A DNA stretch of 64,000 nucleotides from Patescibacteria group bacterium. GTDB lineage: Bacteria; Patescibacteriota; Patescibacteriia; JACRDY01. The notes under the pieces are model-generated. The model worked only from the letters and a program-made list of their open reading frames with translations, was not told the origin of the DNA and did not search any database. This document shows, piece after piece, positions 10,995 to 63,094 of the stretch (the first letter of the stretch is position 1; the number at the start of each line of letters is the position of its first letter). A program made the position numbers and the translations under genes. The stretch spans positions 103,659-167,658 of the forward strand of contig JBAZLA010000002.1 of the NCBI GenBank assembly GCA_041650515.1. The letters run 5' to 3'.

Positions 10995-11588
10995 ATGACT
11001 AACAAAATTCTCCAAACTTCTTTTTATAACCGACCAACACGTCAAGTTGCCCAGGATCTCCTGGGTAAAATTATTATCCGTCAAATCGGCCGCAAAAAAT
11101 ATTACGGCCTTATTACCGAAACTGAAGCTTATTGCGGGCCTCAGGACCAGGCCTCCCACGCTAGCAAAGGCCGCACCCCACGCACCGAGGTAATGTTTGG
11201 CCCAGCCGGCCACACCTATATCTATCTGATTTACGGTCTGTATCATTGTTTCAATATTGTCACCGAAAAAAAAGACTACCCAGCCGCGGTCCTGATCCGT
11301 GGCGCCCTCCCCTTACCAAAGGAATGGTTGGGTGGGGTTACTCTGCCCCTTTCCAAGAGGGAGATGGCCGAAGGCCAGAGGGGGTTAGCTAGTGGCCCAG
11401 GCAAACTCTGCCGTTATTTTAAAATTGATAAAACACTAAATAACCTCGATATTACTAAACCCAATAAACTTTGGCTGGTCGACAGCGGGCTAAAACCCCA
11501 AAGAATCATTCGCCGGCCTCGGGTCGGCGTTGATTACGCTGGTAAATACAAAGACAAAAAATGGCGGTTTATTACCCGATTTTCTTGA
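10995..11588 (+). CDS. mpg: DNA-3-methyladenine glycosylase (Mpg/AAG family)
   Basis: ATG overlaps TAA of upstream gene (taaATG); motifs GLITETEAYCGP, MFGPAGHTYIYLIYG, AVLIRGA, GPGKLC typical of Mpg family. Confidence 0.85.
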   Translation: MTNKILQTSFYNRPTRQVAQDLLGKIIIRQIGRKKYYGLITETEAYCGPQDQASHASKGRTPRTEVMFGPAGHTYIYLIYGLYHCFNIVTEKKDYPAAVLIRGALPLPKEWLGGVTLPLSKREMAEGQRGLASGPGKLCRYFKIDKTLNNLDITKPNKLWLVDSGLKPQRIIRRPRVGVDYAGKYKDKKWRFITRFS

Positions 11589-12168
11589 TACTATTTCTAT
11601 CTTCATCCCAATTTAAAGGATTATTGATAATATATTCGCTGATTTTTTGGTATTCTATTTGATTACGAATAATGTGTTCGTAATAATTTCGTTGCCATAA
11701 TCGTTGATCAAACGGCGACCAATTATTTTGTTTAACGTTTTTAATATATTCGTTGGTGGACATGGTTTTGAACCATTGCACCACCCGGGGTATTAATTGT
11801 TGGGAACGACGTAGGGGCAGACCCGGCGGTATTGGCAGACCTCTGTGTCTGCCCTGTTGGTTCGGGCAGACACAGAGGTCTGCCCCTACGTCGTCGATAA
11901 TTTCCACAATTCCATGAATATGATTTGGCATAACCACAAACACACCCAATCGAATGGTCAAAAATTTGTTCGGTAGTTTAGACCACCATTTTTGTGCCAT
12001 CCGACCCGCCGGATTTAAAATCATTCCCCCGTTTTCCACCCGACCGAATAAATAAACCATATTTTGGCTACAGATGGTAATGAAATATTGCCCCATTCCC
12101 GAATAATCATAATCGGGCAAGCGGATAGAACGACGGTGATGGTAATCGGGGTTATACATAGATAACAA
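11572..12168 (-). mobile_element. REP-associated tyrosine transposase (RAYT / IS200-like Y1 HuH transposase) gene with intragenic REP-like insertion
   Basis: HuH motif MPNHIHGIVEI and catalytic Tyr motif EYIINNP; about 30 extra residues (VGADLCVCPNQQGRHRGLPIPPGLPLRRS) between the two motifs are encoded by a GC-rich compound palindrome. Confidence 0.75.
11806..11894. repeat. GC-rich REP-like compound palindrome (BIME-like) inside the RAYT ORF
   Basis: Outer 18-bp perfect inverted arms acgacgtaggggcagacc / ggtctgcccctacgtcgt; inner units ggcagacctctgtgtctgccc and gggcagacacagaggtctgcccc are reverse complements of each other; GTAG/CTAC tetranucleotides flank the hairpins as in REP sequences. 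Confidence 0.8.
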
Positions 12169-12315: not shown

Positions 12316-12681
12316 TTATTTTTTGGCTTTGGGCTTCTGGCGCGACTTGGGCCGACACCGGCTATTCAGCCAGTCGTCGAACGATCCGACGCTGGCAAAA
12401 TCCGCCTCGTTCGGCTTCTTGCCGTTGACGGCCATCAGATGACGCGCGGCCACCTGCATCACCCCGGTGCCTGACGGATGCCGGAAACGGGCTACCACAC
12501 CCGCTCCCTGCGAGTCGTGACCAAGGCCAATAATCTCCAGACGCTGCCCCAGGGCCGGCGCCAGATGGGCGATAGAGCCAATCGTGGCTCCGCCGCCAGC
12601 GCACGGGCTATTCCGGTTGATCTTGGCCACCACACCAGGATCAACCGATTCGAAAGTCACAGTAATGAATTCTCGACGCAT
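12316..12681 (-). CDS. Small basic protein of unknown function, GC-rich island gene B (paralog of 13047..13448)
   Basis: ORF track gives 12316..12765 but AGGAGG lies 8 nt upstream of ATG at 12681 (MRREFITVTF...); C-terminal basic tail KSRQKPKAKK; region is about 60% GC versus about 40% elsewhere. Confidence 0.55.
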   Translation of the reverse strand: MRREFITVTFESVDPGVVAKINRNSPCAGGGATIGSIAHLAPALGQRLEIIGLGHDSQGAGVVARFRHPSGTGVMQVAARHLMAVNGKKPNEADFASVGSFDDWLNSRCRPKSRQKPKAKK

Positions 12682-13046
12682 AGGGGCCCCTCCTACCAAA
12701 GATTGAGGCAATTGTTTAAAAAGAACCCACACCCCAGCCCGCCTCATTAGGCTAAGGTGATTCACTGATTATTTATTTAATTACCATATTTTCAGTCTTC
12801 AGTCAATAACAATATTCTAAATAAAACAAAATGGGGCAGACGCGTAGTCTTACCCCGGCGCAAGATCGTGGGCAGGCGGGCCTTTGAATCAGCGCAAATT
12901 TCCTCTTTTGGGTTTCCTTCCCCCCTTGTGTGACCGCGCCGCATTGCGGTCGAAGAATTCAACCCCCTTGAGGAAGACGATATCGCTTGGTCAGAAGAGA
13001 ACACAAGGTAGCTCATCTGGCGAAGCGACAAATGCAAAAGGACGTC

Positions 13047-13448
13047 TTACGACCGGCGACGAACTTTGCCGCTGCCGCCGGACTGCTTCTTCTTGCCGCT
13101 GCCGCCGTTGCAGTGGAGCAGAAGAAATTCGCCGAGAAACGTCTCGGCATCCGTCAGATGCTGCTCGGTCGGTTTGATCTTATCGGCGCTCATGACATGC
13201 TGCGCCATGACCTGCAGATCACCCGGATTGAGCCGGCCTTGCAGAGCCTCAGGCAGGGCGAATCGGATGATCGGTCTTCGCAACTTGGGGTGATCAGCGA
13301 TTTCCACCACCGTAAGCTCATGACCGATCAACTGACCGAGTCGTTCGTGGTGACGAGCCTTACTCGGTCGGCCATTCAACACGCATTCACTGTCGCCATT
13401 GAGACAAACAGTGAGCCCCTTCGGAACCTCAACAAACTGAAACTCCAT
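13047..13448 (-). CDS. Small basic protein of unknown function, GC-rich island gene A
   Basis: GAGGT 7 nt upstream of ATG; C-terminal Gly/Lys/Arg tail; segment LQVMAQHVMSADKIKPTEQHLTDAETF aligns with VMQVAARHLMAVNGKKPNEADFASVGSF of gene B; preferred over overlapping plus-strand ORF 12987..13451, which lacks an RBS. Confidence 0.55.
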   Translation of the reverse strand: MEFQFVEVPKGLTVCLNGDSECVLNGRPSKARHHERLGQLIGHELTVVEIADHPKLRRPIIRFALPEALQGRLNPGDLQVMAQHVMSADKIKPTEQHLTDAETFLGEFLLLHCNGGSGKKKQSGGSGKVRRRS

Positions 13449-13569
13449 TAGCGTTACCTCTTCTTTCAGGGCATAGGAGAATGAGCTTTTAGTTGGTCTT
13501 CCGCCTTAGACCTCTGTATAGCCCTAAACGCCAAGGATTCGCCCCGTTGATCCTGACGTAATTATTCGC

Positions 13570-13613: not shown

Positions 13614-13715
13614 GTCATTGCGAGGCCCGACGTAAAGTCGGGCCGAAGCAATCTCATGATATATCCACCAGATTGCTTCGTCGCTCCGCCGGCTGGCGGA
13701 GCTCCTCGCAATGAC
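13614..13715. repeat. 102-bp nested compound palindrome (closing stem plus three internal hairpins, all perfect Watson-Crick)
   Basis: Outer gtcattgcgag/ctcgcaatgac (11 bp); hairpin 1 gcccgac-gtaaa-gtcgggc; hairpin 2 cgaagcaatc-17 nt-gattgcttcg; hairpin 3 gctccgcc-ggct-ggcggagc; linkers 0-2 nt. Confidence 0.8.
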
Positions 13716-13757
13716 GTGGTCAATAAATTTGCTTTATTGTTTTCTTGCTTTATTGAC

Positions 13758-15865: not shown

Positions 15866-15937
15866 CGCCCTCAGTAGGAATCGAACCTACATTACGAGAT
15901 CCGCAATCTCGCGTCCTATCCATTGAACGATGGGGGC
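15866..15937 (-). tRNA. tRNA-Arg (anticodon GCG as parsed)
   Basis: Minus-strand sequence GCCCCCATCGTTCAATGGATAGGACGCGAGATTGCGGATCTCGTAATGTAGGTTCGATTCCTACTGAGGGCG folds as cloverleaf: U8, A14, GG18-19, anticodon stem CGAGA/TCTCG, loop TTGCGGA (U33, G37), T-loop TTCGATT; 3' end abuts recG start. Confidence 0.7.
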
Positions 15938-16148
15938 TTAAACGAACTGGAAACTAAATTAGACTTCTGAAAACCAACTCCGATTTTATCCATTGTCACC
16001 CTCCGGGTGATCCGCCTTTGGCGGAAACGATGGGGGCTTAAACGAACTGGAAACTAAATTAGACTTCTGAAAACCAACTCCGATTTTATCCATTGTCACC
16101 CTCCGGGTGATCCGCCTTTGGCGGAAACGATGGGGGCTTAAACGAACT
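15926..16148. repeat. Tandem direct repeat, 100-bp unit x about 2.2, each copy containing the first 12 nt of tRNA-Arg plus 88 nt of its 5' flank
   Basis: Unit aacgatgggggcttaaacgaactggaaactaaattagacttctgaaaaccaactccgattttatccattgtcaccctccgggtgatccgcctttggcgga repeated identically at 15926 and 16026; third partial copy 16126-16148; unit contains hairpins tcaccc-tcc-gggtga and ccgcc-ttt-ggcgg. Confidence 0.85.
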
Positions 16149-41705: not shown

Positions 41706-44700
41706 TTAACTTAAATTTGCGCTCTCCCCTTCTAGCTCAATCTTCTCTCGGATCACGGGCTCAGCTTGGCTAGCTAGATTAAGGTGGGCTGATTGGTATT
41801 TTTGATAACCAGGCTTAGAAGCGGTTAAATAGTATTCACCCTTAGAAACCAGGAAACAATATTGGCCCAAAGAGTTGGTAATCTCCGTACCCAGGAGTTT
41901 GTTGTACTGGGTGTCAAAAACGCGGATGATCGTATTCTTAATTGGTTTCTGACTCGCCCGATCACGAGTTTGACCAGGGTTAGAAAACATTATTGGCTTA
42001 ATCATTAAACGGTGAAATAGGACAAACAGGATAAGATGGACTACCAATAGACTAATCATTAGTCTAGTTGGGTAAATAATCACCGAGAGTAAAGAAAGAA
42101 CTGGACCTAAATAAGCAACGGCGTGTTGAAATTTTTTAAACCGGTGCTGGTGTAAAATAGCCAAATCGGACTGCTCCGGCAGATTGGGATCCAGAGGGAT
42201 ATTAAAATTAATAATATTACTCTCAGGCGTGGTCGTAATTGATTCGGCGTGATAAAGATTGACATAGACTTCATCTTCTTCTTTACCTTGAGTAAATTTA
42301 GAAGGATAGATAAAATTTGGCTTGGTCACAGTTAAATAATAATTGGTACCCGGTTCGGTAACAAAATAATAACGACCCAAACGATCAGTCACCTTGGTAC
42401 CCATTAGTTGGCCCATAAATTCGGGGTGAGCCAAATCTTTTTTGTATAACCGGACGATCGCTAGATCAACTGGTTGTTTGGAAAGCGAATTATAAACTAC
42501 GCCCCAGGTTTTTCGACGTTTACGGAATAAGAAAAATAGCGGCTCAGTAAAAAGATAAGGCAAATAAGGCAAAAAGCCGATAACCGAGGCAGCAGCCAGA
42601 ACATTGACGACCGACAAAGTGATAATAACCGGAGCGGCAATTCTTCGGGTGTCTCTTTCGACAACGGGGTTATTCAAGACTTTAGTCTGTAACACTCTAA
42701 TCGGCATTGAATTGATGATCTGTTTAATACCTGGGGCTTCCTTAATCTGCTGAGCGAAAGTAGCCAAAAATGATTCACCGGTTTGCCCAGCTATATTGAT
42801 ATTTAATAAACCATCAAATCGACAAAGATTCGAACAGCCATCGTCGTCGATTAAATTGCCATCATCGCATTGTTCACCCGATTCTAGAATATGATTGCCA
42901 CAAATCGGATTAGAAGTAATTAATTGTAGCTGACAGCTAACCGTGCAAGTATAGCCACTAGCTACACCATCAGTACCATCGCACTCCTCACTGCCTTCTC
43001 GGCGATTATCACCACAAACGGCTTGACCAGGTGGTATGATGCCCTCCAACTGACAAGCAGCCGAACAACCATCGCCGTTGTTCAGATTACCATCGTCGCA
43101 CTCTTCGCCTGATTCTAGATTACTATTACCACAAAATGGAGTAGAGGTGATCGGTTGTAGCTGACAAGCAACAGTACAGGTGTAGCCACTGATCACGCCA
43201 TCAGTGCCGTCGCACTCTTCGCCTGATTCCAGGATATTATTACCGCAGAATGGCGTCGAAGTGATCTTTTGAAGCTGACAACTGGCCGTGCAAGTATAAT
43301 CACTAACTAGACCATCAGCACCATCGCACTCCTCACTGCCTTCTTTAATATTATTGCCACAGACTGGAATATCGGTTTCATCATTATCACCAGCGGATGA
43401 GCAACCAGGGTCAGCCGGATAATCAATCTTGGTATCGCCATCATTATCAAGACCATCGGCACACTGGGCTGTGGGTGGTGGAGTAACAGTATCGGTTTCG
43501 TCGTTATCACCAGCGGATGAGCAACCTGGATCAGCCGGATAATCAATCTTGGTATCGCCATCATTATCAAGACCATCAGCGCATTCCGCGGGAGCCGTAC
43601 CAGACTCGGAATCATCATCCCAACTATTACAATCTGGATCAGCTAAGTCGCCAATACCGTAATCACGGTAGCCATCGCCATCATTATCCACCCCATCATT
43701 ACATTGATAACTGCCAATGATGGTAAAACTAAGCGGGGCCGAAGCGCTAGAGATCAGGCTGGTGATGGGATTCTGAACTTGAGCGATAATAGTATGAATA
43801 CCAGTTGGTAAAATAAGTGAACCAGAAAAGCTCCAGCTAGGACCAACAATTGGACCAAAACCAAAAACAAAAGGGTCGGAATAAATCGTCAAAAGAATAT
43901 TATGGCTACCATCGTCTTTAAGGCCATTAGCGCTAAAATCAACTCGCCGATAGTCTAAAGAATTATCATCATTACCAATACTGGCAACTTGATCTAAGTA
44001 GTGGCCATAACCAGTGTCGTAATAGCCAGGGGCTAAAGCAAGAATATTAATTATGGAAAAACCTGAAACCACGGGTGGGTTTAAGATTGAATCAGTCTCA
44101 ATATCATCCCAGCTCCCTTCACAACCCGGGTCAGCTAGGTCGATTTTACCATCTAAATCATTATCCAGACCATCGGCGCACTGGGATAATTCAGTACTAT
44201 CACTAGCCATCGAACAGCCGGGGTCAGCCGGATAATCAATCCGACCATCGCCATCATTATCCACCCCGTCTGAACATTGAGGTAAAGTGACCGGGTTAGT
44301 TTCATCATCATCAATGACACTACTGCAACCCGGGTCAGCCAAATCAATCTGACCATCTAAATCATTATCTAGACCGTCGGAACACTGATAAACTGGCGGC
44401 GGGGTAGAATCGTTCTCGTCATTATCCGTGGGGCTGCTACAACCAGGATCAGTGAGGTCAATCTTGCCATCACTATCATTGTCTATTTCATCGGAACATT
44501 GATAAATCGGGGGTACAATGATCGGGGCATTATATTCGTCCCCATCATTACCATCAACACAGCCTGGATCAGCTGGGTAGTCAACTAAGCCATCGCCATC
44601 ATTATCCACGCCGTCAGCACAAACGGGATGATGCCCACCACCTGAAGTAATTGCAAAAGATCCATCACTAAAATCAACCACGTTAGCATCAGGATAATCA

Positions 44701-52619: not shown

Positions 52620-53710
52620 TTATATCTTTCTTTAACTTTAGCCAAACCCGCTTGACCAAAACGATCAGCCAACTCGGGATTATCTAAAATTTTCATAATT
52701 TTCTCTTTTAGATCTTCAACGTTTTGGGGCTCGGTTAACAGACCATTAACACCATCATCAACCACGCTGCGTACACCAGCCAAATTAGAAGCAATCACCG
52801 GCTTGCCGCAAGCCATCGCCTCCACTAGCACTAAACCAAAAGCTTCGGACTTATCAATTGATGGCAGAACAAACAGGTCGCTGAGATTATAATGTTTAAC
52901 CAAATCTTCATCATTCACATAACCAACAAAATTAACTTGATCACGGATATTAAAATCAACGGCGAGCTGCTCATAATCTTTCTTTAAATTACCTCGCCCA
53001 ACAACTAATAATTTGATATTCTGATCCTTAATTTGACTCAACACTTCAAGTAAAAAACTCAGACCCTTAAAATAGTGGGCTGAATCAAGCGCCGCCACGA
53101 ATAAAATCACTTTTTGTTCAGTAGTGATCTGATATTTTTCTAATAAATTTTTATCTTTGGCAGCTGGCTTAAATTGCTTTAGATCTACTCCCAGCGGAAT
53201 TTCGATAAATTTATCAGGATATTTATTAGCTAATTCTTTGATATTTGAACTTTGGATATAATCCGAAGAAGTAACTATCACTTTATCAGCCACCTTGATT
53301 ATTTGTGGTAATAAATATCGGCCATGCCAATAAAAATATCTTGCCAACAGTCCCTGGCCAACAACATCCATATGATAAGTCAGAACTAGCTTGGTATTCT
53401 TGGGTCGCAGTTTTTTCAGCCAATAGAGCGGCCAAGCCGTGCCAAAAAAAGGGCAATGGAGATGAATAATATCAAAATGGCGTAACTGCCATAATAATTG
53501 AGGCAAATAAGCCGCCTGGCCATGACTTAGCCAAGGCACAAAACTCTTGAGCTGAAAATTCATATAGGGCATCTCCCGCTCTTTATAGTGTGGCACCACG
53601 ACCGTAATCTTATGACCTAATTTAGCCAATTCTAAACTATAATGGAGGGCCACGTTGCCCATTCCACCTTTATAGGGCGGAAAACTGCAAACCACTTGAG
53701 CGATTTTCAT
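52571..53710 (-). CDS. Glycosyltransferase family 4
   Basis: N-terminal GGMGNVALHYSLELAKLGH, C-terminal EAFGLVLVEAMACGKPVIAS motif. Confidence 0.8.
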   Translation of the reverse strand: MKIAQVVCSFPPYKGGMGNVALHYSLELAKLGHKITVVVPHYKEREMPYMNFQLKSFVPWLSHGQAAYLPQLLWQLRHFDIIHLHCPFFGTAWPLYWLKKLRPKNTKLVLTYHMDVVGQGLLARYFYWHGRYLLPQIIKVADKVIVTSSDYIQSSNIKELANKYPDKFIEIPLGVDLKQFKPAAKDKNLLEKYQITTEQKVILFVAALDSAHYFKGLSFLLEVLSQIKDQNIKLLVVGRGNLKKDYEQLAVDFNIRDQVNFVGYVNDEDLVKHYNLSDLFVLPSIDKSEAFGLVLVEAMACGKPVIASNLAGVRSVVDDGVNGLLTEPQNVEDLKEKIMKILDNPELADRFGQAGLAKVKERYNWQSIAKRIDEVYRHL

Positions 53711-53719
53711 AAAGTTAAC

Positions 53720-54841
53720 TTACCAAAAAATCAGCCTTCTGACTACTTGCCAATATAGATTAAATATCGGATTAGCCACTTTAAGCGCTAAATTATTAAC
53801 CTCTTGAAATTTAATTTCCCCGGTTAAATATTTTACTATCTCCCTATCTTTAACCTGCCGCAGCTGAGAGATTTTCTTTTTGCGCCTAATTAAATATGAC
53901 CAGCTGCTCGGCTTTAAGAACCAACCATATACTCGCATTTTCTCAATCAAAAACCCTCGAAGTAAAGCAAAAAATAGCAAACCCAATTCCATTATTATTA
54001 AAGCTGGTAAAATTAAAATTCCAGTTGCTAGTTTATAATTAGTTAACAAACAAATAAACCGGTTATGTTCCATCCAATAATACTGCTGAATACTTTTACT
54101 AAATTGGTACTTGTGGTAAACCACCGATAACGGCGCCAAGTAAATTTGATAACCAGCCAAACGCAGCCGCCAGCTTAGATCTAAGTCATCATGATACATC
54201 CAAAATTCTTCATCAAACAAGCCAACTTTATCTAAGGCTTCTTTTTTAAGCAAGACCGCCGCGCCGGAGAAATAAGTAATTTCGCTAGCCATCGGCTCGC
54301 CTCGCTTTCGCTCCGGCGAAGCGGACCATCGGCTCCTGCCCTGAGCGAAGCCGAAGGGATCGGCCATCGGCCATTTTTGATAACCACCAGCTGAATAACC
54401 AAAACCTAAATAATGCAAACTATTACCCACACTATTAATTTTCTCCTTCTCTGGCCAAAGCATCAACCGTGATTGAATCGCTCCCCAATTTGGCGCTTGG
54501 TCAGCAGTTCTAGTTAATTCGCTTAGCCAATTTTCTTCGACTACTGTATCCAAATTTAACAAAACGAAATATTCAAAACCTTGGGTGATTGCTCTTTTAA
54601 TACCATCGTTATTGCCCTTGCACCAACCGTCATTTTCTTTATTAGTGATCACCTCGGCCTCCGGCGCATTAGTGGCTAAATAGTTCACTGTCTTGGCGGT
54701 GGCCTCATTATCAACGATAAAAATTTTGGAAGTACCAATAAAATCTTGTCGCCGCAAGCTAGCTAAACAATCTGCCAAATATTGCTCAGCGTAATCACGG
54801 TAATTAACCAGAATAATTGCAACCTTATTTATCATAATCAA
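53720..54841 (-). CDS. Glycosyltransferase family 2 with in-frame GC-rich repeat insertion
   Basis: N-terminal VAIILVNYRD, DNEATA, DxD-like region; central PMADPFGFAQGRSRWSASPERKRGEPMAS encoded by GC-rich tandem repeat. Confidence 0.75.
   Translation of the reverse strand: MIMINKVAIILVNYRDYAEQYLADCLASLRRQDFIGTSKIFIVDNEATAKTVNYLATNAPEAEVITNKENDGWCKGNNDGIKRAITQGFEYFVLLNLDTVVEENWLSELTRTADQAPNWGAIQSRLMLWPEKEKINSVGNSLHYLGFGYSAGGYQKWPMADPFGFAQGRSRWSASPERKRGEPMASEITYFSGAAVLLKKEALDKVGLFDEEFWMYHDDLDLSWRLRLAGYQIYLAPLSVVYHKYQFSKSIQQYYWMEHNRFICLLTNYKLATGILILPALIIMELGLLFFALLRGFLIEKMRVYGWFLKPSSWSYLIRRKKKISQLRQVKDREIVKYLTGEIKFQEVNNLALKVANPIFNLYWQVVRRLIFW
54289..54374. repeat. GC-rich tandem repeat (about 37-bp unit x 2.3) inserted in-frame in GT2 gene
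   Basis: ccatcggctcgcctcgctttcgctccggcgaagcgga / ccatcggctcctgccctgagcgaagccgaagggatcgg / ccatcggccat; about 65% GC inside a 38% GC gene. Confidence 0.7.
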
Positions 54842-54850
54842 AAAAAGGAG

Positions 54851-55231
54851 TTATTCCAATTTGTTTTCTTGCCCTTCGACTCCGCTTAGGGCAGGTTTTA
54901 TTGCTTTCTTGTTTTCTTGATCAAGCGCCACATGACGAGTAATTTTAGTTATCTGATGCTCAAGCCGCTCTAGCCGAACCAAGATTCTAAAAACCAAATA
55001 AAACAAAGCTAAAACTGAAATATAAACCAATAGATCAGCGCCCCGGCTCACCCCAACTTGAGCCGCCAAGAGATCAGTTGTCTGGGGCAAAACTACCGCC
55101 ACGCCAACTAATAACCAAAAGACTAACCAAGTTATCAACTCTTTGACCGTGATCTCTCGACGATAGAAACGGCTGATCACTCGATAAACAACGAACAGGA
55201 TAAAAACGATGAGAAATAATTTAATCAACAT
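54851..55231 (-). CDS. DUF2304-like small membrane protein (glycosyltransferase-associated)
   Basis: Three TM helices plus C-terminal coiled tail; conserved position beside GT2 in such clusters. Confidence 0.55.
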   Translation of the reverse strand: MLIKLFLIVFILFVVYRVISRFYRREITVKELITWLVFWLLVGVAVVLPQTTDLLAAQVGVSRGADLLVYISVLALFYLVFRILVRLERLEHQITKITRHVALDQENKKAIKPALSGVEGQENKLE

Positions 55232-55232
55232 A

Positions 55233-55892
55233 TTATTTTAATATCTTCTTAAGAATTAAATCTTTTAAAATTTTCCAGCCGGCCCCAAACCCTTGGCCAT
55301 ACCGATGGTAAATAATATCCACCGGCACTTCTTGATACCGCAGCCGATTTTTTCTCACCTGGGCCAAAATCTCCGAAGCATGAGCCATCTCATCATGAGT
55401 AATATTAATCAGTCGGGCGGCCTTAGCCGATAGCGCTCGCAGACCATTATGAGCATCAGACAACTTAACACCAGTAAATAACCAATTAAACAAAATCGCC
55501 GGTTTAAGAATCAACCATTTTTTAGTCCAAGGTACTCGGCTATTACCCAAAAAGCGTGAACCAAAAACTATATCGGCTCTACCTTCGACAATCGGTTCTA
55601 TTAATCTAGCGATTTCCGCTACTTGATGCTGACCATCCGCATCAAAATGAATAATAATATCAGCACCATTTTTTAAAGCGTACTCATCACCAGTCTGCAG
55701 TGCCGCCCCTTGGCCACGATTAATCAAATGGTTTAAAACCACCAATCCCCGGCCGGCAGCAACTTGAGTGGTATTATCTACCGAACCGTCATCGACAACT
55801 ACTACATTTTGATATTGATTTTTGAGTTGATCTAAACTATTGCCTAGTCGTGATTCTTCATTCCAAGCCGGCACAACAACAAAAATTTTCAT
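55233..55892 (-). CDS. Glycosyltransferase family 2 (polyprenyl-phosphate sugar transferase-like)
   Basis: KIFVVVPAWNEE, VVVDDGSVDNT, HFDADGQH (DxD) motifs. Confidence 0.85.
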   Translation of the reverse strand: MKIFVVVPAWNEESRLGNSLDQLKNQYQNVVVVDDGSVDNTTQVAAGRGLVVLNHLINRGQGAALQTGDEYALKNGADIIIHFDADGQHQVAEIARLIEPIVEGRADIVFGSRFLGNSRVPWTKKWLILKPAILFNWLFTGVKLSDAHNGLRALSAKAARLINITHDEMAHASEILAQVRKNRLRYQEVPVDIIYHRYGQGFGAGWKILKDLILKKILK

Positions 55893-55896
55893 AAAT

Positions 55897-56925
55897 TTAT
55901 TTCTGGTCTGATTGAAAGTCAGCTCGTTCTAGAGTCAGCAACCCTTTATGAGCTTTAGTATAATCAATCGTCTTTTGTAAACCATCTTCTAACCTAACCA
56001 CCGGCAGCCAGCCCAATTTTTCCTTAGCCAAGGTGATATCCGGCAAACCCAACGGAGTCATAAAAAGTAATGGATCTTTAAAAACAATCTGGGATTTTGA
56101 CCCGGTCATCTTAATAATCGATTGAGCAATATCATAGAGCCGATAATCTTCTTCTGAACCAAGATTAATCGGGCCGCTTTCCTCAGACTCCATTAATTTG
56201 ATAGCGCCATCTAAGATATCAGAAATATAACAAAGTGAACGTGAAAAAGTCTGATCACCATAAATTACTAAATCTCTATTTTCCAGAGCATCAACAATAA
56301 AATCAGGCAACATCTGGCCATCAAAAAGTTTCATCCGCGGCCCATAAGCAGTAAAAATCCGCGCAATCTTGGCATCTAGGTTATAAACCTGACGATAGGT
56401 CGCCACAATCGCTTCGGCAAATCGCTTACCTTCATCATAACAGGCGCGGGGCGACAGGAAATCGACTTGCCCAAGATAGTCTTCTCTAAACTGAGAACCA
56501 TCAACTGGCCGTGGGCCATAAACCACCGAAGAAGAAAAATGTAGAAACCTGGCCTTAAATTTTAAGGCTATCTCTAGAGCATTCTTAGTACCAATGGCAT
56601 TGGTATCGACAGTTTGAATTTTGTATTTCTCAAAATCCTTAGCCGACGTTGGGCAAGCTAAGTTATAAACTTGAGCAATACCGCGGGCCTTAATTTTGAA
56701 TTTTCGCAATTCGGGTAACGACTCTAAATCAATCGGCTGGCTAATATCATGCTTAATAAATTCAAAATTAGGGTTCCGAAGTAAATGGTCAATGTTCTCT
56801 TGAGCTCCAGAAATAAAATCGTCCAAAGCAATCACGTGGTGATGCTCGACTAAATAATCGCAGAGATGAGAGCCCATAAAACCAGCTCCGCCAATTACCA
56901 AAATATTTTTTCGCTCGATAACCAT
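55897..56925 (-). CDS. NAD-dependent epimerase/dehydratase (UDP-glucuronate decarboxylase-like)
   Basis: ILVIGGAGFMGSHL Rossmann motif; YDEGKR catalytic YxxxK. Confidence 0.8.
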   Translation of the reverse strand: MVIERKNILVIGGAGFMGSHLCDYLVEHHHVIALDDFISGAQENIDHLLRNPNFEFIKHDISQPIDLESLPELRKFKIKARGIAQVYNLACPTSAKDFEKYKIQTVDTNAIGTKNALEIALKFKARFLHFSSSVVYGPRPVDGSQFREDYLGQVDFLSPRACYDEGKRFAEAIVATYRQVYNLDAKIARIFTAYGPRMKLFDGQMLPDFIVDALENRDLVIYGDQTFSRSLCYISDILDGAIKLMESEESGPINLGSEEDYRLYDIAQSIIKMTGSKSQIVFKDPLLFMTPLGLPDITLAKEKLGWLPVVRLEDGLQKTIDYTKAHKGLLTLERADFQSDQK

Positions 56926-57421: not shown

Positions 57422-59512
57422 CTATTCAATTATAGCTAATTTTAGACCAAAATTATAGCTGGGACCAAAAACGGAAAACTCTTTCTCAACTTGACCTAGA
57501 TAATCGAAAATCTTAACTGCTCGTCCAGTCCGTCGCTGACTTAAAACTAGATCTGCCCAACCATCTTTATCATAATCACCAACGGCCAAATTAGCGCCGC
57601 CTAAAAACTGCTGATCGTAAGCCAAAAATTCTTTTTTTAGATTACCAGCGTTATCAAAAATCTTTACCCAAGGAGCTGATTGACCAGCCGGAACAGTAAC
57701 AATTTCCACCCGCTGATTAGCATCAACGTCACCGGCCGCAATTTTGACTCCGCCCAAAAAACTTCGATCATAGGCAAAAAACTGAGCCAAGACTTTACCG
57801 GTGGCATCAAAAATCCGAACATGCGGTCCACCACCAATATTAGCCGCGGTAATTATTTCTTTACTGCCATCTAGGTTAATATCACCAACCGCGAGGTTAA
57901 CGCCACTAGTCATTTTTTTATCATAGGCCAAAAATTCTTTTTTTAGATTACCAGCGTTATCAAAAATCTTCACCCAGGGCGCCAAGTCGCTAGCTGGAGC
58001 GGTAACAATTTCTACCCGCTGATCAGCATCAACATCACCGGCAACCACATTTACTCCGCCCAAAAAATTTCGATCATAGGCAAAAAACTGAGCTAAGACT
58101 TTGCCATTAACATCAAAAATCCGAACATGCGGTCCACCACCAATATTAGCCGCGGTAATGATTTCTTTGACACCATCAAGGTTGACATCGCCGACCGCTA
58201 AGTTAACCCCGCCACGAAAAGATTGCTGATAAGCCAAAAATTCTTTTTCTAGGACACCGCTTTGATTATAAACCTGGACCATTGGTTCATAACCGGTCGT
58301 CGGGGCAACGATCAATTTACTATCTAGACTAAAAGTAGGTTGACTATTAACTAACGGCGGCTGGACAACCGTCTCTTTTCTATTCTTATTATATTCAATC
58401 GCCGCCCAAACCGCTTTACCAACATTTAACCGACCAGCACCAATTCGCCCATTTTTAAAAACCGGGTTAAGTTGATCAATATTATCAGTGTTATCAGTTA
58501 GTAAATCAAGAACTTCTGTCGGGGTAAATTCTTTATTTATTGACTTGAGTAAGGCCGCCGCACCTGAAACCAGTGGCGCCGCTAATGAGGTCCCCTCCCA
58601 ACCACCACCATAGTATTGATTAAAATCTTTATTATTAGGTATATAAATCTGAGTCGAATAGATCTCTTGACCAGGGGCGGATAGGTCTAAGCACTTTGAA
58701 CCATAATTAGAAAATGTTGATCGATAGTCTCGTTCATCGGTCGATCCGACACCAACCACCATCTTTTTGCCAGCTAAAGTTTTATAACAGACCGGATAAA
58801 ACGGCGTAACATCCAGATCTAAACCACCGGCCAACGGCGCATTGCCAGAAGCAGCAACCACAACTACACCAGCCCGATGAGCTCGTTCGATGGCCGCCTG
58901 CAGATCAGAATAAGGAAAATTGCCTTGAAAACTCAAATTTAAAACATCAGCACCATTGTTAATCGCATAATCAATAGCCTCAACTGTCGGACCGATTGAA
59001 GCCATTCCATTATTATCCAAAACCTTTAAAGACATTATCTTGCTCTTCCAGGTCACGCCAGTTATCCCCCAGAGATTATCACCTTGGGCGGCGATCAAAC
59101 CAGCAATCAGCGTACCATGGTTTGCCCCTTCAAAAGAATAATCCTTGGAAAAATCAACCCAAGGCTGGTTGTTCTTATCAACAAAGTTCCAACCGTAAAT
59201 GTCATCGGCATAACCATTATTATCATTATCAATACCATCGCCATCAACCTCATCATAATTAATCCAAATATTACCGCTGAGATCAGGGTGATCAATATCA
59301 ACACCCGTATCCAAAACGGCCACAATCACCTCTTCTGAACCAACTGTATAGTCCCAAGCTTGCGGTAAATTGATCTTCTCAACGTACCACTGCAAAAAAT
59401 AATCAGGATCGTTGGGTCTCAGCGCTGCCGCCGGGGACAAAAAAATAACCAAATTAAAAGTAATAATTAAAAAAGAGATTAAAAACTGGCTTTTTCTCTT
59501 GCTAAAACGCAT
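57422..59512 (-). CDS. Secreted subtilisin-like serine protease (S8) with five C-terminal FG-GAP-type repeats
   Basis: Signal peptide; catalytic D (VAVLDTGVD), H (NHGTLIAG), S (GTSLAAPLVSGAAALL); C-terminal repeats AVGDVNLDGVKEIITAANIGGGPHVRIFD x5. Confidence 0.85.
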   Translation of the reverse strand: MRFSKRKSQFLISFLIITFNLVIFLSPAAALRPNDPDYFLQWYVEKINLPQAWDYTVGSEEVIVAVLDTGVDIDHPDLSGNIWINYDEVDGDGIDNDNNGYADDIYGWNFVDKNNQPWVDFSKDYSFEGANHGTLIAGLIAAQGDNLWGITGVTWKSKIMSLKVLDNNGMASIGPTVEAIDYAINNGADVLNLSFQGNFPYSDLQAAIERAHRAGVVVVAASGNAPLAGGLDLDVTPFYPVCYKTLAGKKMVVGVGSTDERDYRSTFSNYGSKCLDLSAPGQEIYSTQIYIPNNKDFNQYYGGGWEGTSLAAPLVSGAAALLKSINKEFTPTEVLDLLTDNTDNIDQLNPVFKNGRIGAGRLNVGKAVWAAIEYNKNRKETVVQPPLVNSQPTFSLDSKLIVAPTTGYEPMVQVYNQSGVLEKEFLAYQQSFRGGVNLAVGDVNLDGVKEIITAANIGGGPHVRIFDVNGKVLAQFFAYDRNFLGGVNVVAGDVDADQRVEIVTAPASDLAPWVKIFDNAGNLKKEFLAYDKKMTSGVNLAVGDINLDGSKEIITAANIGGGPHVRIFDATGKVLAQFFAYDRSFLGGVKIAAGDVDANQRVEIVTVPAGQSAPWVKIFDNAGNLKKEFLAYDQQFLGGANLAVGDYDKDGWADLVLSQRRTGRAVKIFDYLGQVEKEFSVFGPSYNFGLKLAIIE

Positions 59513-61740: not shown

Positions 61741-62115
61741 CTACTTATCTATCCCGGTTATTCTGCTACAAATTGCCTCAATATCCGAAACAACTCCCAT
61801 CGTATTTTTAAAAACTTCTCTGGCGGTATATCTTCTAACAACCAAACCTAAACTACACAAATATTTTTCTCGTTCTCTGTCTTTTTTATAAACCACTGGG
61901 TCATCGTGATACTGACCGTCAACTTCGATCACCAGTTTTAATTCTGGGCAATAAAAATCAACCACGTAATTGCCGATCCCTTGCTGTCTTCTAAATTTAT
62001 ATCCTAGCTGCCGATTGTTTATCTTATACCACAATTTGTTCTCGACTTTAGTGGAACTGTGACGTAGTTTAGAACGTAAATTTTTAAATTTTTTTCTATT
62101 AAATGTCTGACCCAT
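61741..62115 (-). CDS. DUF559 (Vsr-like endonuclease fold) domain protein
   Basis: NRQLGYKFRRQQGIGNYVVDFYCPELKLVIEVDG...HDD...RREREKYLCSLGLVVRRYTAREV matches DUF559 consensus. Confidence 0.75.
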   Translation of the reverse strand: MGQTFNRKKFKNLRSKLRHSSTKVENKLWYKINNRQLGYKFRRQQGIGNYVVDFYCPELKLVIEVDGQYHDDPVVYKKDREREKYLCSLGLVVRRYTAREVFKNTMGVVSDIEAICSRITGIDK

Positions 62116-62128
62116 AACTTAGATATTC

Positions 62129-62220
62129 ATCTCCAGCACCCCACCCTGTCCCTCCCCTTAGCAGGGGAGAATGCGTCTCCTCCCCTGCTAAGGGGAGGGA
62201 CAGGGTGGGGTGCTGGAGAT
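62129..62220. repeat. 92-bp perfect GC-rich palindrome (41-bp arms, 10-nt spacer)
   Basis: atctccagcaccccaccctgtccctccccttagcaggggag / aatgcgtctc / ctcccctgctaaggggagggacagggtggggtgctggagat; arms are exact reverse complements; 14 nt upstream of DUF559 start. Confidence 0.9.
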
Positions 62221-62281: not shown

Positions 62282-63094
62282 CTAAAGTTTCACCACCTGG
62301 CGCTGCCGTTTGGTGAATTGAATATATTCGCTGTAGCCGACTGCCTTAGCCAGAGCCAAGGCTTGGTCAAAATATCGCCCAATCCGATCTGGGCTGTGCG
62401 CATCCGAGCCAAAAGTAATCGGCACCCCGGCTTTAAATAGCGCAATTAAAAATCCTTTACTCGGATAAATCTCCTGACACGGCGCTTCCAACCCGCTGGA
62501 ATTAATCTCAACCACTACCCCGGTTTCTTTAAACACTTTAGCGGTTTGGTTAAATACGTCAGTCAAATCACCCTTGGGTTTGGGCGCATATTTTTTAATC
62601 AAATCCGGATGAGCCATAATATCAAACAGCCCGGTCCGCGCTGCGTCTTGCAGTAATTGGTGATAAGTTTGAAACAATTTATCCGGATCCAAGAGAGCAA
62701 TTTTATCCCGTTCATAATAATAATGCCCGTTATCAAGATAATTTTTCTCATCATCGCACTGCCAATTACCAATATAGTGAATCGCGCCCAAAATATAATC
62801 CAGCTCAGACAAATATGGCTCGAGTATTTTCACCACTTGGGAATGATAATCGGGCAAATAATCCACTTCCATCCCCCATTTGATACTGAGCTTGCTTGTT
62901 TGTCTAGTTTGTTTAACTTTTTCCAAAATCTGCGATATCTCGCTAGCTTTACCCGACCACTCTGGCTCATCAAAAGAAAAATGATCAGAAAACCCAATTT
63001 CCGTCATTCCTTTTTCTTTAGCTCCGACCACCATTTCAAGGTGACTATTGTAACCATCGGAAAAAGTGGTGTGCATGTGATAATCAGCAAGCAT
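62282..63094 (-). CDS. PHP-family histidinol-phosphatase-like protein
   Basis: MLADYHMHTTFSDG PHP motif, further His/Asp metal ligands (GFSDH, HPD, GSDAH). Confidence 0.75.
   Translation of the reverse strand: MLADYHMHTTFSDGYNSHLEMVVGAKEKGMTEIGFSDHFSFDEPEWSGKASEISQILEKVKQTRQTSKLSIKWGMEVDYLPDYHSQVVKILEPYLSELDYILGAIHYIGNWQCDDEKNYLDNGHYYYERDKIALLDPDKLFQTYHQLLQDAARTGLFDIMAHPDLIKKYAPKPKGDLTDVFNQTAKVFKETGVVVEINSSGLEAPCQEIYPSKGFLIALFKAGVPITFGSDAHSPDRIGRYFDQALALAKAVGYSEYIQFTKRQRQVVKL

Follow-up and report, generated by a model that had tools for sequence, protein, structure and literature searches.

Two tiny dispersed repeat units in a probable composite, frame-preserving insertion in a Patescibacteria glycosyltransferase gene

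The window analysed here, a stretch of 64,000 nucleotides (nt) from a Patescibacteria group bacterium (contig JBAZLA010000002.1, positions 103,659 to 167,658), contains a gene for a GT2-family glycosyltransferase (GT2) whose reading frame runs without interruption through a short GC-rich segment. This segment is absent from the closest ortholog and is likely to be a composite, frame-preserving insertion of two tiny repeat units, here called U1 and U2, each of which belongs to a dispersed family. Copies of a short sequence, designated T for duplicated target sequence, stand around and between the two units, giving the order T-U1-T-U2-T-T'. The features concerned are the following:

53720–54841, minus strand: GT2-family glycosyltransferase of 373 amino acids (aa), an uninterrupted open reading frame (ORF) with matches to Pfam PF00535, PF13641 and PF13632.
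54288–54374, no strand assigned: composite insert T-U1-T-U2-T-T', recognised by its GC contrast, its absence from the closest ortholog and the low predicted local confidence (pLDDT) of the residues that it encodes.
54289–54298, plus strand: first target copy, CCATCGGCTC, from the repeat search; the GCTC with which it ends is shared with the conserved 5' end of U1.
54295–54325, plus strand: U1, GCTCG CCTCGCTTTCGC TCCG GCGAAGCGG A, identified by its hairpin fold, family matches and nhmmer (E = 0.004).
54326–54335, plus strand: second target copy, CCATCGGCTC, between U1 and U2, from the repeat search.
54335–54358, plus strand: U2, CCTGCCCTGAGCGAAGCCGAAGGG, with an exact core at 54339–54358 (nhmmer, E = 2e-8).
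54359–54374, plus strand: third and fourth target copies, ATCGGCC ATCGGCC AT (Tandem Repeats Finder, TRF: period 7, 2.3 copies, 100%).

The segment stands out from its host in composition, as the initial annotation had noticed: GC content is 68.6% at 54289–54374 and 37.2% in the remainder of the GT2 gene, and 0.08% of the 86-nt windows in the 64 kb reach the former value. The frame stays open throughout, with the translation ...WPMADPFGFAQGRSRWSASPERKRGEPMASE..., the peptide first quoted being correct, and the PF00535 and PF13641 matches support the GT2 assignment of the host. Counted from the first to the third GCCATCGGC, the insert adds 75 nt, or 25 codons, which encode approximately residues 159–183 in the loop between GFGY and YFSGAAVL. 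These 75 nt are the sum of spacings of 37, 31 and 7 nt, none of which is divisible by 3. The plus-strand layout is CCATCG-GCTCG...GCGGA-CCATCG-GCTCCTGCCCT...GAAGGG-ATCGGCC-ATCGGCC-AT. The recurring word has 9–10 nt (CCATCGGC[TC]): the 10-nt form, CCATCGGCTC, is found twice, once on either side of U1 as an exact repeat, and the 9-nt form, GCCATCGGC, three times at 37- and 38-nt spacing, while the hexamer ATCGGC starts at 54291, 54328, 54359 and 54366. The third and fourth target copies form a 7-nt tandem with no sequence between them. Read on the opposite strand, U2 in GT2 encodes PFGFAQGR.

The same segment had initially been described as 2.3 tandem copies of a 37–38-bp unit, which would be explained by local duplication or replication slippage within the gene. 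The spacing of CCATCGGCTC (37 nt) and GCCATCGGC (37 and 38 nt) and the 7-nt tandem at the 3' edge are what such a process could leave behind, but TRF (minimum score 30) reports ATCGGCC x2.3 at 54359–54374 and no array of period 37. Once the shared 10 nt are set aside, the two bodies are dissimilar in register, their direct-orientation similarity being matched by a fraction of 0.36 of shuffles, and the string cgaagc.ga that the two were said to share is out of register, at an offset of 29 rather than 37. Moreover, each body matches a separate dispersed family in other organisms. A tandem origin is, in our view, barely credible. In inverted orientation the similarity of the bodies is marginal, with 0.08 of shuffles scoring at least as well.

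U1 is an 8-bp hairpin with one bulge, whose stem, CGCTT(T)CGC / GCGAAGCG, is present in both the minimum-free-energy and the centroid folds. A metagenome scan placed its family at no fewer than 120 loci, mostly on contigs of 33–50% GC from groundwater-type samples, and the exact 25-mer of the window was found in nine copies at eight of the metagenome loci (L171, L175 with two copies, L207, L208, L216, L227, L274 and L283). The consensus of this family ends sharply on both sides, gCTCG-CCTCGCTT(T)CGC-loop-GCGAAGCGG-g, i.e. gCTCG...GCGAAGCGGg, and complementary outer flanks around it are a minority feature among the copies. The scan of viral contigs gave no match to U1.

The U2 family is defined by a 26-nt motif, (A)GCCTGCCCTGAGCGnAGyCGAAGGG. 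A genome scan with the pattern GCCCTNAGCGNAGNCGAAGGG, in which each species was represented by one genome, yielded at least 120 genome loci in Acidobacteriota, Chloroflexota, Cyanobacteria, Patescibacteria, Planctomycetota, Bacteroidota, Proteobacteria and others; among the matches listed are loci of Nostoc, Nodularia, Leptolyngbya and Microcoleaceae. The first N of the pattern is G in all 129 U2 matches listed. Conservation in these matches reaches 5 nt to the left of the pattern (AGCCT, 53–80%) and then stops abruptly on both sides, where the flanks are unrelated. With a stricter pattern, the motif was also found on 44 viral contigs of IMG/VR. The U2 stem has 4 bp, CCCT/AGGG, around a loop-like centre, GAGCGnAGyCGA. 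The term palindromic, used in the initial annotation, thus fits U1, whereas it fits U2 weakly.

The variable base of U2 is the middle of GCGnAGC. DNA of the sequence d(GCGNAGC) forms a very stable mini-hairpin, and we take GCGnAGC in U2 to be this mini-hairpin, as a lead only. A conserved loop on a variable lower stem was considered as a general feature of U2 and rejected, complementary flanks of at least 6 bp being weakly enriched (9.5% versus 3.8%). At the same loci there is a related centre, GAGCGNAGCGA, which the scan did not select; complementary flanks of at least 4 bp accompany it in 43% of 21 cases, versus 3.4% of controls, and the stems vary (ATGCT/AGCAT, ATCCC/GGGAT, ATTCC/GGAAT, TCGGT/ACCGG). 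These sequences suggest that small hairpins sharing a conserved loop form a wider group. U2 may also be present two or three times within a few kb, as at L040, L046, L047, L080, L084, L116, L135 and L153 (Acidobacteriota, Chloroflexota and viral contigs), and in Acidobacteriota U2 often lies inside other local repeats, such as tgtcatcctgagcg...gaag-motif-atctc and ctccgtg...-motif-...tctgtggtgaa.

Searches for an existing description of these units gave negative results. Rfam 15 has no relevant match at E values up to 10 in 53000–56000 and none at the motif in 12 loci (gathering threshold); over the whole window it reports three tRNAs, a riboswitch and one sRNA, all elsewhere, and no U1 or U2 family. 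A full-text literature search for the motif strings found no paper, and the literature on palindromic or in-frame inserts in Patescibacteria, or the candidate phyla radiation, yielded nothing specific.

The nhmmer profiles detect three units in the window, two of U2 (E = 2e-8 and 1.4e-5) and one of U1 (E = 0.004). The additional U2 unit, copy B, lies on the other strand approximately 500 bp from the GT2 copy, with three mismatches at 54872–54891 (0 expected), and it belongs to a second insertion, made up as follows:

54851–55231: DUF2304 gene, host of the second insertion in its C-terminal tail.
54872–54908, minus strand: second insertion, consisting of U2 copy B, CCTGCCCTAAGCGGAGTCGAAGGG (54872–54895), together with 13 nt that lie upstream on the coding strand; the translation is KAIKPALSGVEG.
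54909–54919, minus strand: direct repeat CAAGAAAACAA, upstream copy, flanking the insertion.
54861–54871, minus strand: direct repeat CAAGAAAACAA, downstream copy, flanking the insertion.

The two exact 11-nt copies of CAAGAAAACAA are 48 nt, or 16 codons, apart and bracket the 37 nt that hold the U2 motif. The protein ends in ...DQENK-KAIKPALSGVEG-QENK-LE*, its tail being extended by 16 codons. The Pfam DUF2304 model ends at residue 106 of 126, and the ortholog at L124, with 108 aa, lacks the tail.

The layout of the GT2 insert recurs in another gene. At positions of about 440–545 of the metagenome locus L228 (Ga0265296_1053237) we find tttttcatt-U1-tttttcatt-U2-tttttcatt-tttcatt inside a putative miaA gene (tRNA dimethylallyltransferase), a host identified from its translation alone. 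The order and orientation of the units are the same as in the window, both arrays are on the non-coding strand, and both have an extra, empty target copy at the end; the target word differs. Family-wide, flanking direct repeats of at least 8 nt accompany U1 in 5.4% of copies, compared with 0.6% of controls, and flanking repeats with at least 9 matching bases accompany U2 in 3.2%, again compared with 0.6%. Clear cases are L105 (11 nt), L284 (14 nt) and L285 (8 nt). We put the chance that the flanking repeats are true target duplications at about even.

An alignment with orthologs confirms that the GT2 segment is an insertion. The closest one, P0002 (350 aa; 62% identity by BLASTP, 66% in the alignment), lacks it and has SAGGYQKLPFQLEVQPIT in place of the 40 residues of the window protein, and none of the orthologs carries the same residues, which was the case that the initial annotation had named as refuting. 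The site is a loop, as had been proposed (its supposed surface exposure being conjectural), and the loop varies in length: from GFGY to YxSGAAVL the median over the 120 best homologs is 20 residues, mostly 15–22, against 40 in the window, and loops of at least 26 residues (26–57) occur in 24 of 120 sequences, namely the window protein and 23 homologs. AlphaFold2, run with a 120-sequence alignment, gave a GT-A fold with a pLDDT of 92.7 and a predicted template modelling score (pTM) of 0.91. The insert is the sole low-confidence stretch of this model, with a pLDDT of 64 for residues 161–170, 52 for 171–180 and below 50 at 170–176, and the loop is probably disordered. For seven orthologs with expanded loops the DNA was read, and six of these hold a GC-rich palindromic element in the loop:

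L122, L123 and L289: inverted doublets of other GC-rich families.
L291: a single hairpin.
L124, the syntenic gene of Falkowbacteria: a U1-like unit oriented the opposite way.
L292: a U1-like unit nested in another hairpin.
L290: a tandem 8-mer.

Further genes also carry the units. Counting as genes those ORFs that span 150 codons or more and leave a minimum of 50 codons on either side of the unit, we find 20 of 58 U1 and 4 of 14 U2 copies within genes on contigs of up to 50% GC; the corresponding value for random positions is 54%. For seven hosts, Pfam domains are matched both before and after the unit; these are ATP-dependent DNA ligase, ComM-type Mg-chelatase, PolX, GatB, PurT-like ATP-grasp, NAD-epimerase and TrpRS. 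Relative to the host gene, units are found in either orientation.

These observations also bear on the proposal that the hairpins are selected for a local function, be it in mRNA stability or translation pausing, as a protein-binding DNA site or as a functional peptide loop. The adjacent GT2 and DUF2304 genes of one operon both carry U2, and REPs (repetitive extragenic palindromes) elsewhere act as RNA elements (PMC3733652), but the orthologs have unrelated elements or none at the loop, the units are found in both orientations in many unrelated genes, the peptide is modelled as disordered and Rfam has no matching family. We regard such a function as very improbable.

A further candidate is a REPIN-type doublet, that is, two inverted REPs, mobilised by the product of a gene for a transposase of the RAYT (REP-associated tyrosine transposase) type elsewhere in the window:

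11572–12168, minus strand: RAYT-like Y1 transposase (PF01797, E = 5e-5), with a weak match to E. coli TnpA-REP (4er8).

Besides the presence of this gene, the 75% complementarity of U1 and U2 over 20 nt favours a doublet, as do the clear inverted doublets in the same loop of the orthologs L122, L123 and L289. There is a documented precedent: more than half of the intragenic GTAG/CGTC REP inserts in several phyla are dimers or groups that encode 20–30 residues (Di Nocera, De Gregorio & Rocco 2013, PMC3733652). REPs are marked by a terminal GTAG (or CGTC) tag (PMC3733652), and neither GTAG nor CGTC occurs on either strand of 54288–54374. The families of the two units differ, and the units are complementary to a marginal degree only (0.08 of shuffles); neither of them flanks the RAYT-like gene, and tblastn found a RAYT homolog within 8 kb at none of the 120 U2 loci listed. 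The RAYT-like gene does contain an insert of its own, which the initial annotation had tentatively grouped with that of GT2 in one family. This insert, which interrupts the gene in frame at 11808–11895, is a GTAG-tagged inverted REP doublet, GTAGGGGCAGACC...GGTCTGCCCCTAC, and thus of a different family. It is also given as GTAGGGGCAGACC...GGGCAGACACAGAGGTCTGCCCCTAC, with the translation VGADLCVCPNQQGRHRGLPIPPGLPL; compared with E. coli TnpA-REP (4er8), the RAYT-like protein has approximately 40 residues more from its HUH to its Tyr motif, a part of which is encoded by the doublet. Y1 transposases of the IS200/IS605 type are not known to produce target duplications. Because of the missing tag, the unlike units, the lack of RAYT near 120 loci and the duplicated flanks, we place the GT2 insert outside the tagged REP class, and mobilisation as a REPIN appears improbable. 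MITEs (miniature inverted-repeat transposable elements) were considered as well and rejected: the units are below 35 nt, have no terminal inverted repeats and are flanked by repeats of 6–14 nt, as against IS-derived inverted termini, a typical size above 100 bp and a duplication of fixed length.

A composite insertion of U1 and U2 most likely came about as follows. Short units would have integrated at staggered breaks, in one compound event or in a few serial ones, and gap filling would have duplicated the 6–11-nt target at each integration. The allele would have survived because the total of 75 nt preserves the frame, the units, in the frame used, are free of stop codons and the loop can accommodate the added residues. 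The units have the appearance of selfish or neutral passengers, not of components of the enzyme, and their effect would be approximately 25 added flexible residues.

Several observations weigh against the composite-insertion reading. The 37-, 31- and 7-nt sub-units would each break the frame, such that serial events need non-functional intermediates. Flanking direct repeats accompany a minority of the family copies, and their length of 6–14 nt is unlike that left by a classical transposase. Some flanks lie within short tandem repeats (ATCGGCC x2.3 and GTTTTCTT x3.1, TRF), and slippage-prone targets could therefore mimic target duplications. A search of the 120 U2 loci listed with the RAYT-like protein of the window (tblastn) gave no candidate for a mobilising gene, and the 64 kb contain just three U1 or U2 units, a high copy number in the genome not being demonstrated. 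Relative to shuffles, U2 alone shows no better fold (z = +0.73 for its copy in the window), and we therefore regard it as a putative hairpin; the folding energy of U1 is not significantly better than that of shuffles either, and that of the whole GT2 insert has z = -1.38. As neither unit beats shuffles significantly, no claim made here depends on folding energy. The protein collection has no close relative for a comparison with an empty site, the next match being 62–66% identical, and it is owing to this distance that we infer, rather than observe, where the units begin and end, in which order events took place and that the target was duplicated; the mobility of the units is to be read in the same way.

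A serious rival is an origin that needs no transposase, by polymerase template switching or by the capture of hairpin oligonucleotides in break repair, where microhomology would give rise to the repeated flanks. It would account for the variable length of the flank repeats (6–14 nt), for the empty extra target copy in the window and in L228, for the association of copies with short tandem repeats, also seen at L105 and L284, and for the frequent nesting of copies in other palindromic elements (L216, L223, L287, L292). The presence in U2 of GCGnAGC, the sequence of a very stable DNA mini-hairpin, is also in its favour. Against it stand the sharp edges of the units and their near-identical sequence across phyla, which suggest the recognition of a defined unit and not random copying. 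No donor locus was identified, and the mechanism is speculative. We assign this origin a low but appreciable probability.

In-frame palindromic repeats are already known, and U1 and U2 depart from them in having no GTAG or CGTC tags, no link to RAYT and duplicated flanks. The Rickettsia palindromic elements (RPEs), which Ogata and co-workers are said to have described in 2000 and 2002, are reportedly palindromic repeats inserted in frame in housekeeping genes. The likeness extends to GC-richer palindromic repeats that lie in frame in a small AT-rich genome and encode short peptides at tolerant sites while the hosts remain intact; here, too, the GT2 and DUF2304 ORFs are both intact despite their insertions. 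The differences are in size and distribution, RPE-1 having approximately 100–150 bp and RPE-4/6 being CGTC-tagged, whereas U1 and U2 have 24–31 nt, are untagged, occur in many phyla and on viral contigs, and have duplicated flanks. Another system is that of the mobile G+C clusters of yeast mitochondrial DNA, which Weiller and co-workers are said to have described in 1989, with in-frame GC clusters reported in VAR1. These are short GC-rich palindromes in an AT-rich genome, single or arrayed with repeated target between them and sometimes in frame; the system is organellar and its sequences are unrelated.

Such inserts had been called rarely reported outside Rickettsia in the initial annotation, which was an overstatement: intragenic REP dimers are documented in several phyla (PMC3733652), where RPE-4/6 are treated as CGTC REPs and different REPs are described at about one recB site in two Xanthomonas species, and there is a review that covers small repeats within genes (PMC3184786). 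REP units have 20–40 nt, a size near that of the present units, and the insert in the RAYT-like gene of the window fits the REP class; the GT2 insert differs in being untagged and without RAYT association, and in combining two unlike units with duplicated flanks between and around them. The small dispersed repeats (SDRs) of Nostocaceae have been presented as 'very small mobile repeated elements' (Elhai et al. 2008, via PMC5861425 and PMC4390886), and as reported in the latter two papers SDR5 is inserted at HIP1, between its third and fourth bases. As described there, SDRs resemble our units in being very small, below MITE size, treated as mobile and precise at short targets, and U2 also occurs at cyanobacterial loci; SDRs are reported there in Nostocaceae only, U2 being found in many phyla, and the two are compared by description only. 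By analogy in size and behaviour, cyanobacterial SDRs and yeast mitochondrial GC clusters would be the nearest counterparts of U1 and U2.

The suggestion of a mobile GC-rich mini-element, made at the outset, is thus retained insofar as both units belong to dispersed families and occur in frame elsewhere, and given up insofar as it implied a tandem array and one family with the RAYT insert. It is possible, though we advance it as a tentative and rather doubtful proposal, that U1 and U2 represent an undescribed class of integrating modules of approximately 25–31 nt, with sharp ends and a near-identical sequence across bacterial phyla and on phage contigs, untagged, free of RAYT, with variable short target duplications, arranged in mini-arrays and frequent in Patescibacteria genes. 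If so, insertion would be frequent enough for a GC-rich element to be present in one glycosyltransferase loop in approximately one-fifth of the orthologs, the modules would contribute significantly to the new peptide segments that arise in these reduced genomes, and an integration activity of an undescribed kind would be implied.

In-frame palindromic inserts are usually seen as a Rickettsia curiosity or as a rare fate of REPs. On low-GC, Patescibacteria-like contigs, approximately one-third of the U1 and U2 copies lie in genes, and one enzyme loop has been struck by unrelated elements in separate lineages. Were this to hold genome-wide, it would help to explain lineage-specific protein insertions in these bacteria and would account for recurrent odd metagenomic peptides such as SPRFAGEAGG, PASPAKRGE, LRLRSGQA, PSTSLRA and ALSGVEG, while the T-U-T-U-T-T layout would point to an insertion mechanism beyond the tagged REP/RAYT or MITE models. 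For annotation, such segments should be flagged as repeat-derived and not as protein features.

The GT2 gene is part of a cell-envelope glycosylation cluster (epimerase, GT2, DUF2304, GT2, GT4, GT4, from ORFs and Pfam), and this gene order is common to the Falkowbacteria contig L124. The window as a whole has a GC content of 42.9%. The GT2 protein is 100% identical to that of an NCBI Patescibacteria metagenome-assembled genome, encoded on a contig of 243.5 kb, and is recorded in NCBI, JGI, ENA and Logan. An assembly artefact is unlikely as the source of the insert, since the identical protein is on record in four sources, which are not necessarily independent assemblies.

Other repeats were noted in the window. 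At 13662–13725, in the intergenic region downstream of recG, there is a GC-rich element, AGATTGCTTCGTCGC-TCCGCCGGCTGGCGGA-GCTCCTCGCAATGAC. Its outer arms, GAGATTGCTTCG...CTCGCAATGACA, enclose U1 in L216, L223 and L287 and make up the inverted doublet that L122 carries in its GT2 loop, which suggests nesting of small elements. Just upstream of recG, an exact 100-nt tandem repeat (15926–16148; 2.2 copies, 100% identity), containing GTCACCCTCCGGGTGATCCGCCTTTGGCGGA, begins within the 5' end of a minus-strand tRNA gene (15866–15937).

A perfect palindrome with 41-nt arms and a 10-nt loop lies at 62129–62220, between a small ORF (61741–62115) and a PHP-domain gene (62282–63094), and each arm holds the hairpin CTCCCCT-TAGC-AGGGGAG. 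The Logan contig L293 carries the PHP gene and stops approximately 90 nt beyond it, at about the site of the palindrome, a hint that assemblies break there.

A block of approximately 1.1 kb at 12316–13450 has 55–66% GC, and its part at 12421–12633 is as GC-rich as the GT2 insert. The ORFs in this block (12316–12765 and 13047–13448, both on the minus strand) have no Pfam match, and Rfam reports nothing there; the block could be foreign DNA or a non-coding feature. In the Mpg glycosylase gene (10995–11588, plus strand), a GC-rich stretch at 11270–11413 encodes PLPKEWLGGVTLPLSKREMAEGQRG. It was considered as a third in-frame insert, which is unproven, as the alignment to human AAG (1bnk) is ungapped, and the stretch may be a replacement or a plain GC-rich segment. 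Imperfect long tandem repeats are present at 43094–43331 (114 nt x2.1, 75%) and 57614–58207 (306 nt x1.9, 85%).

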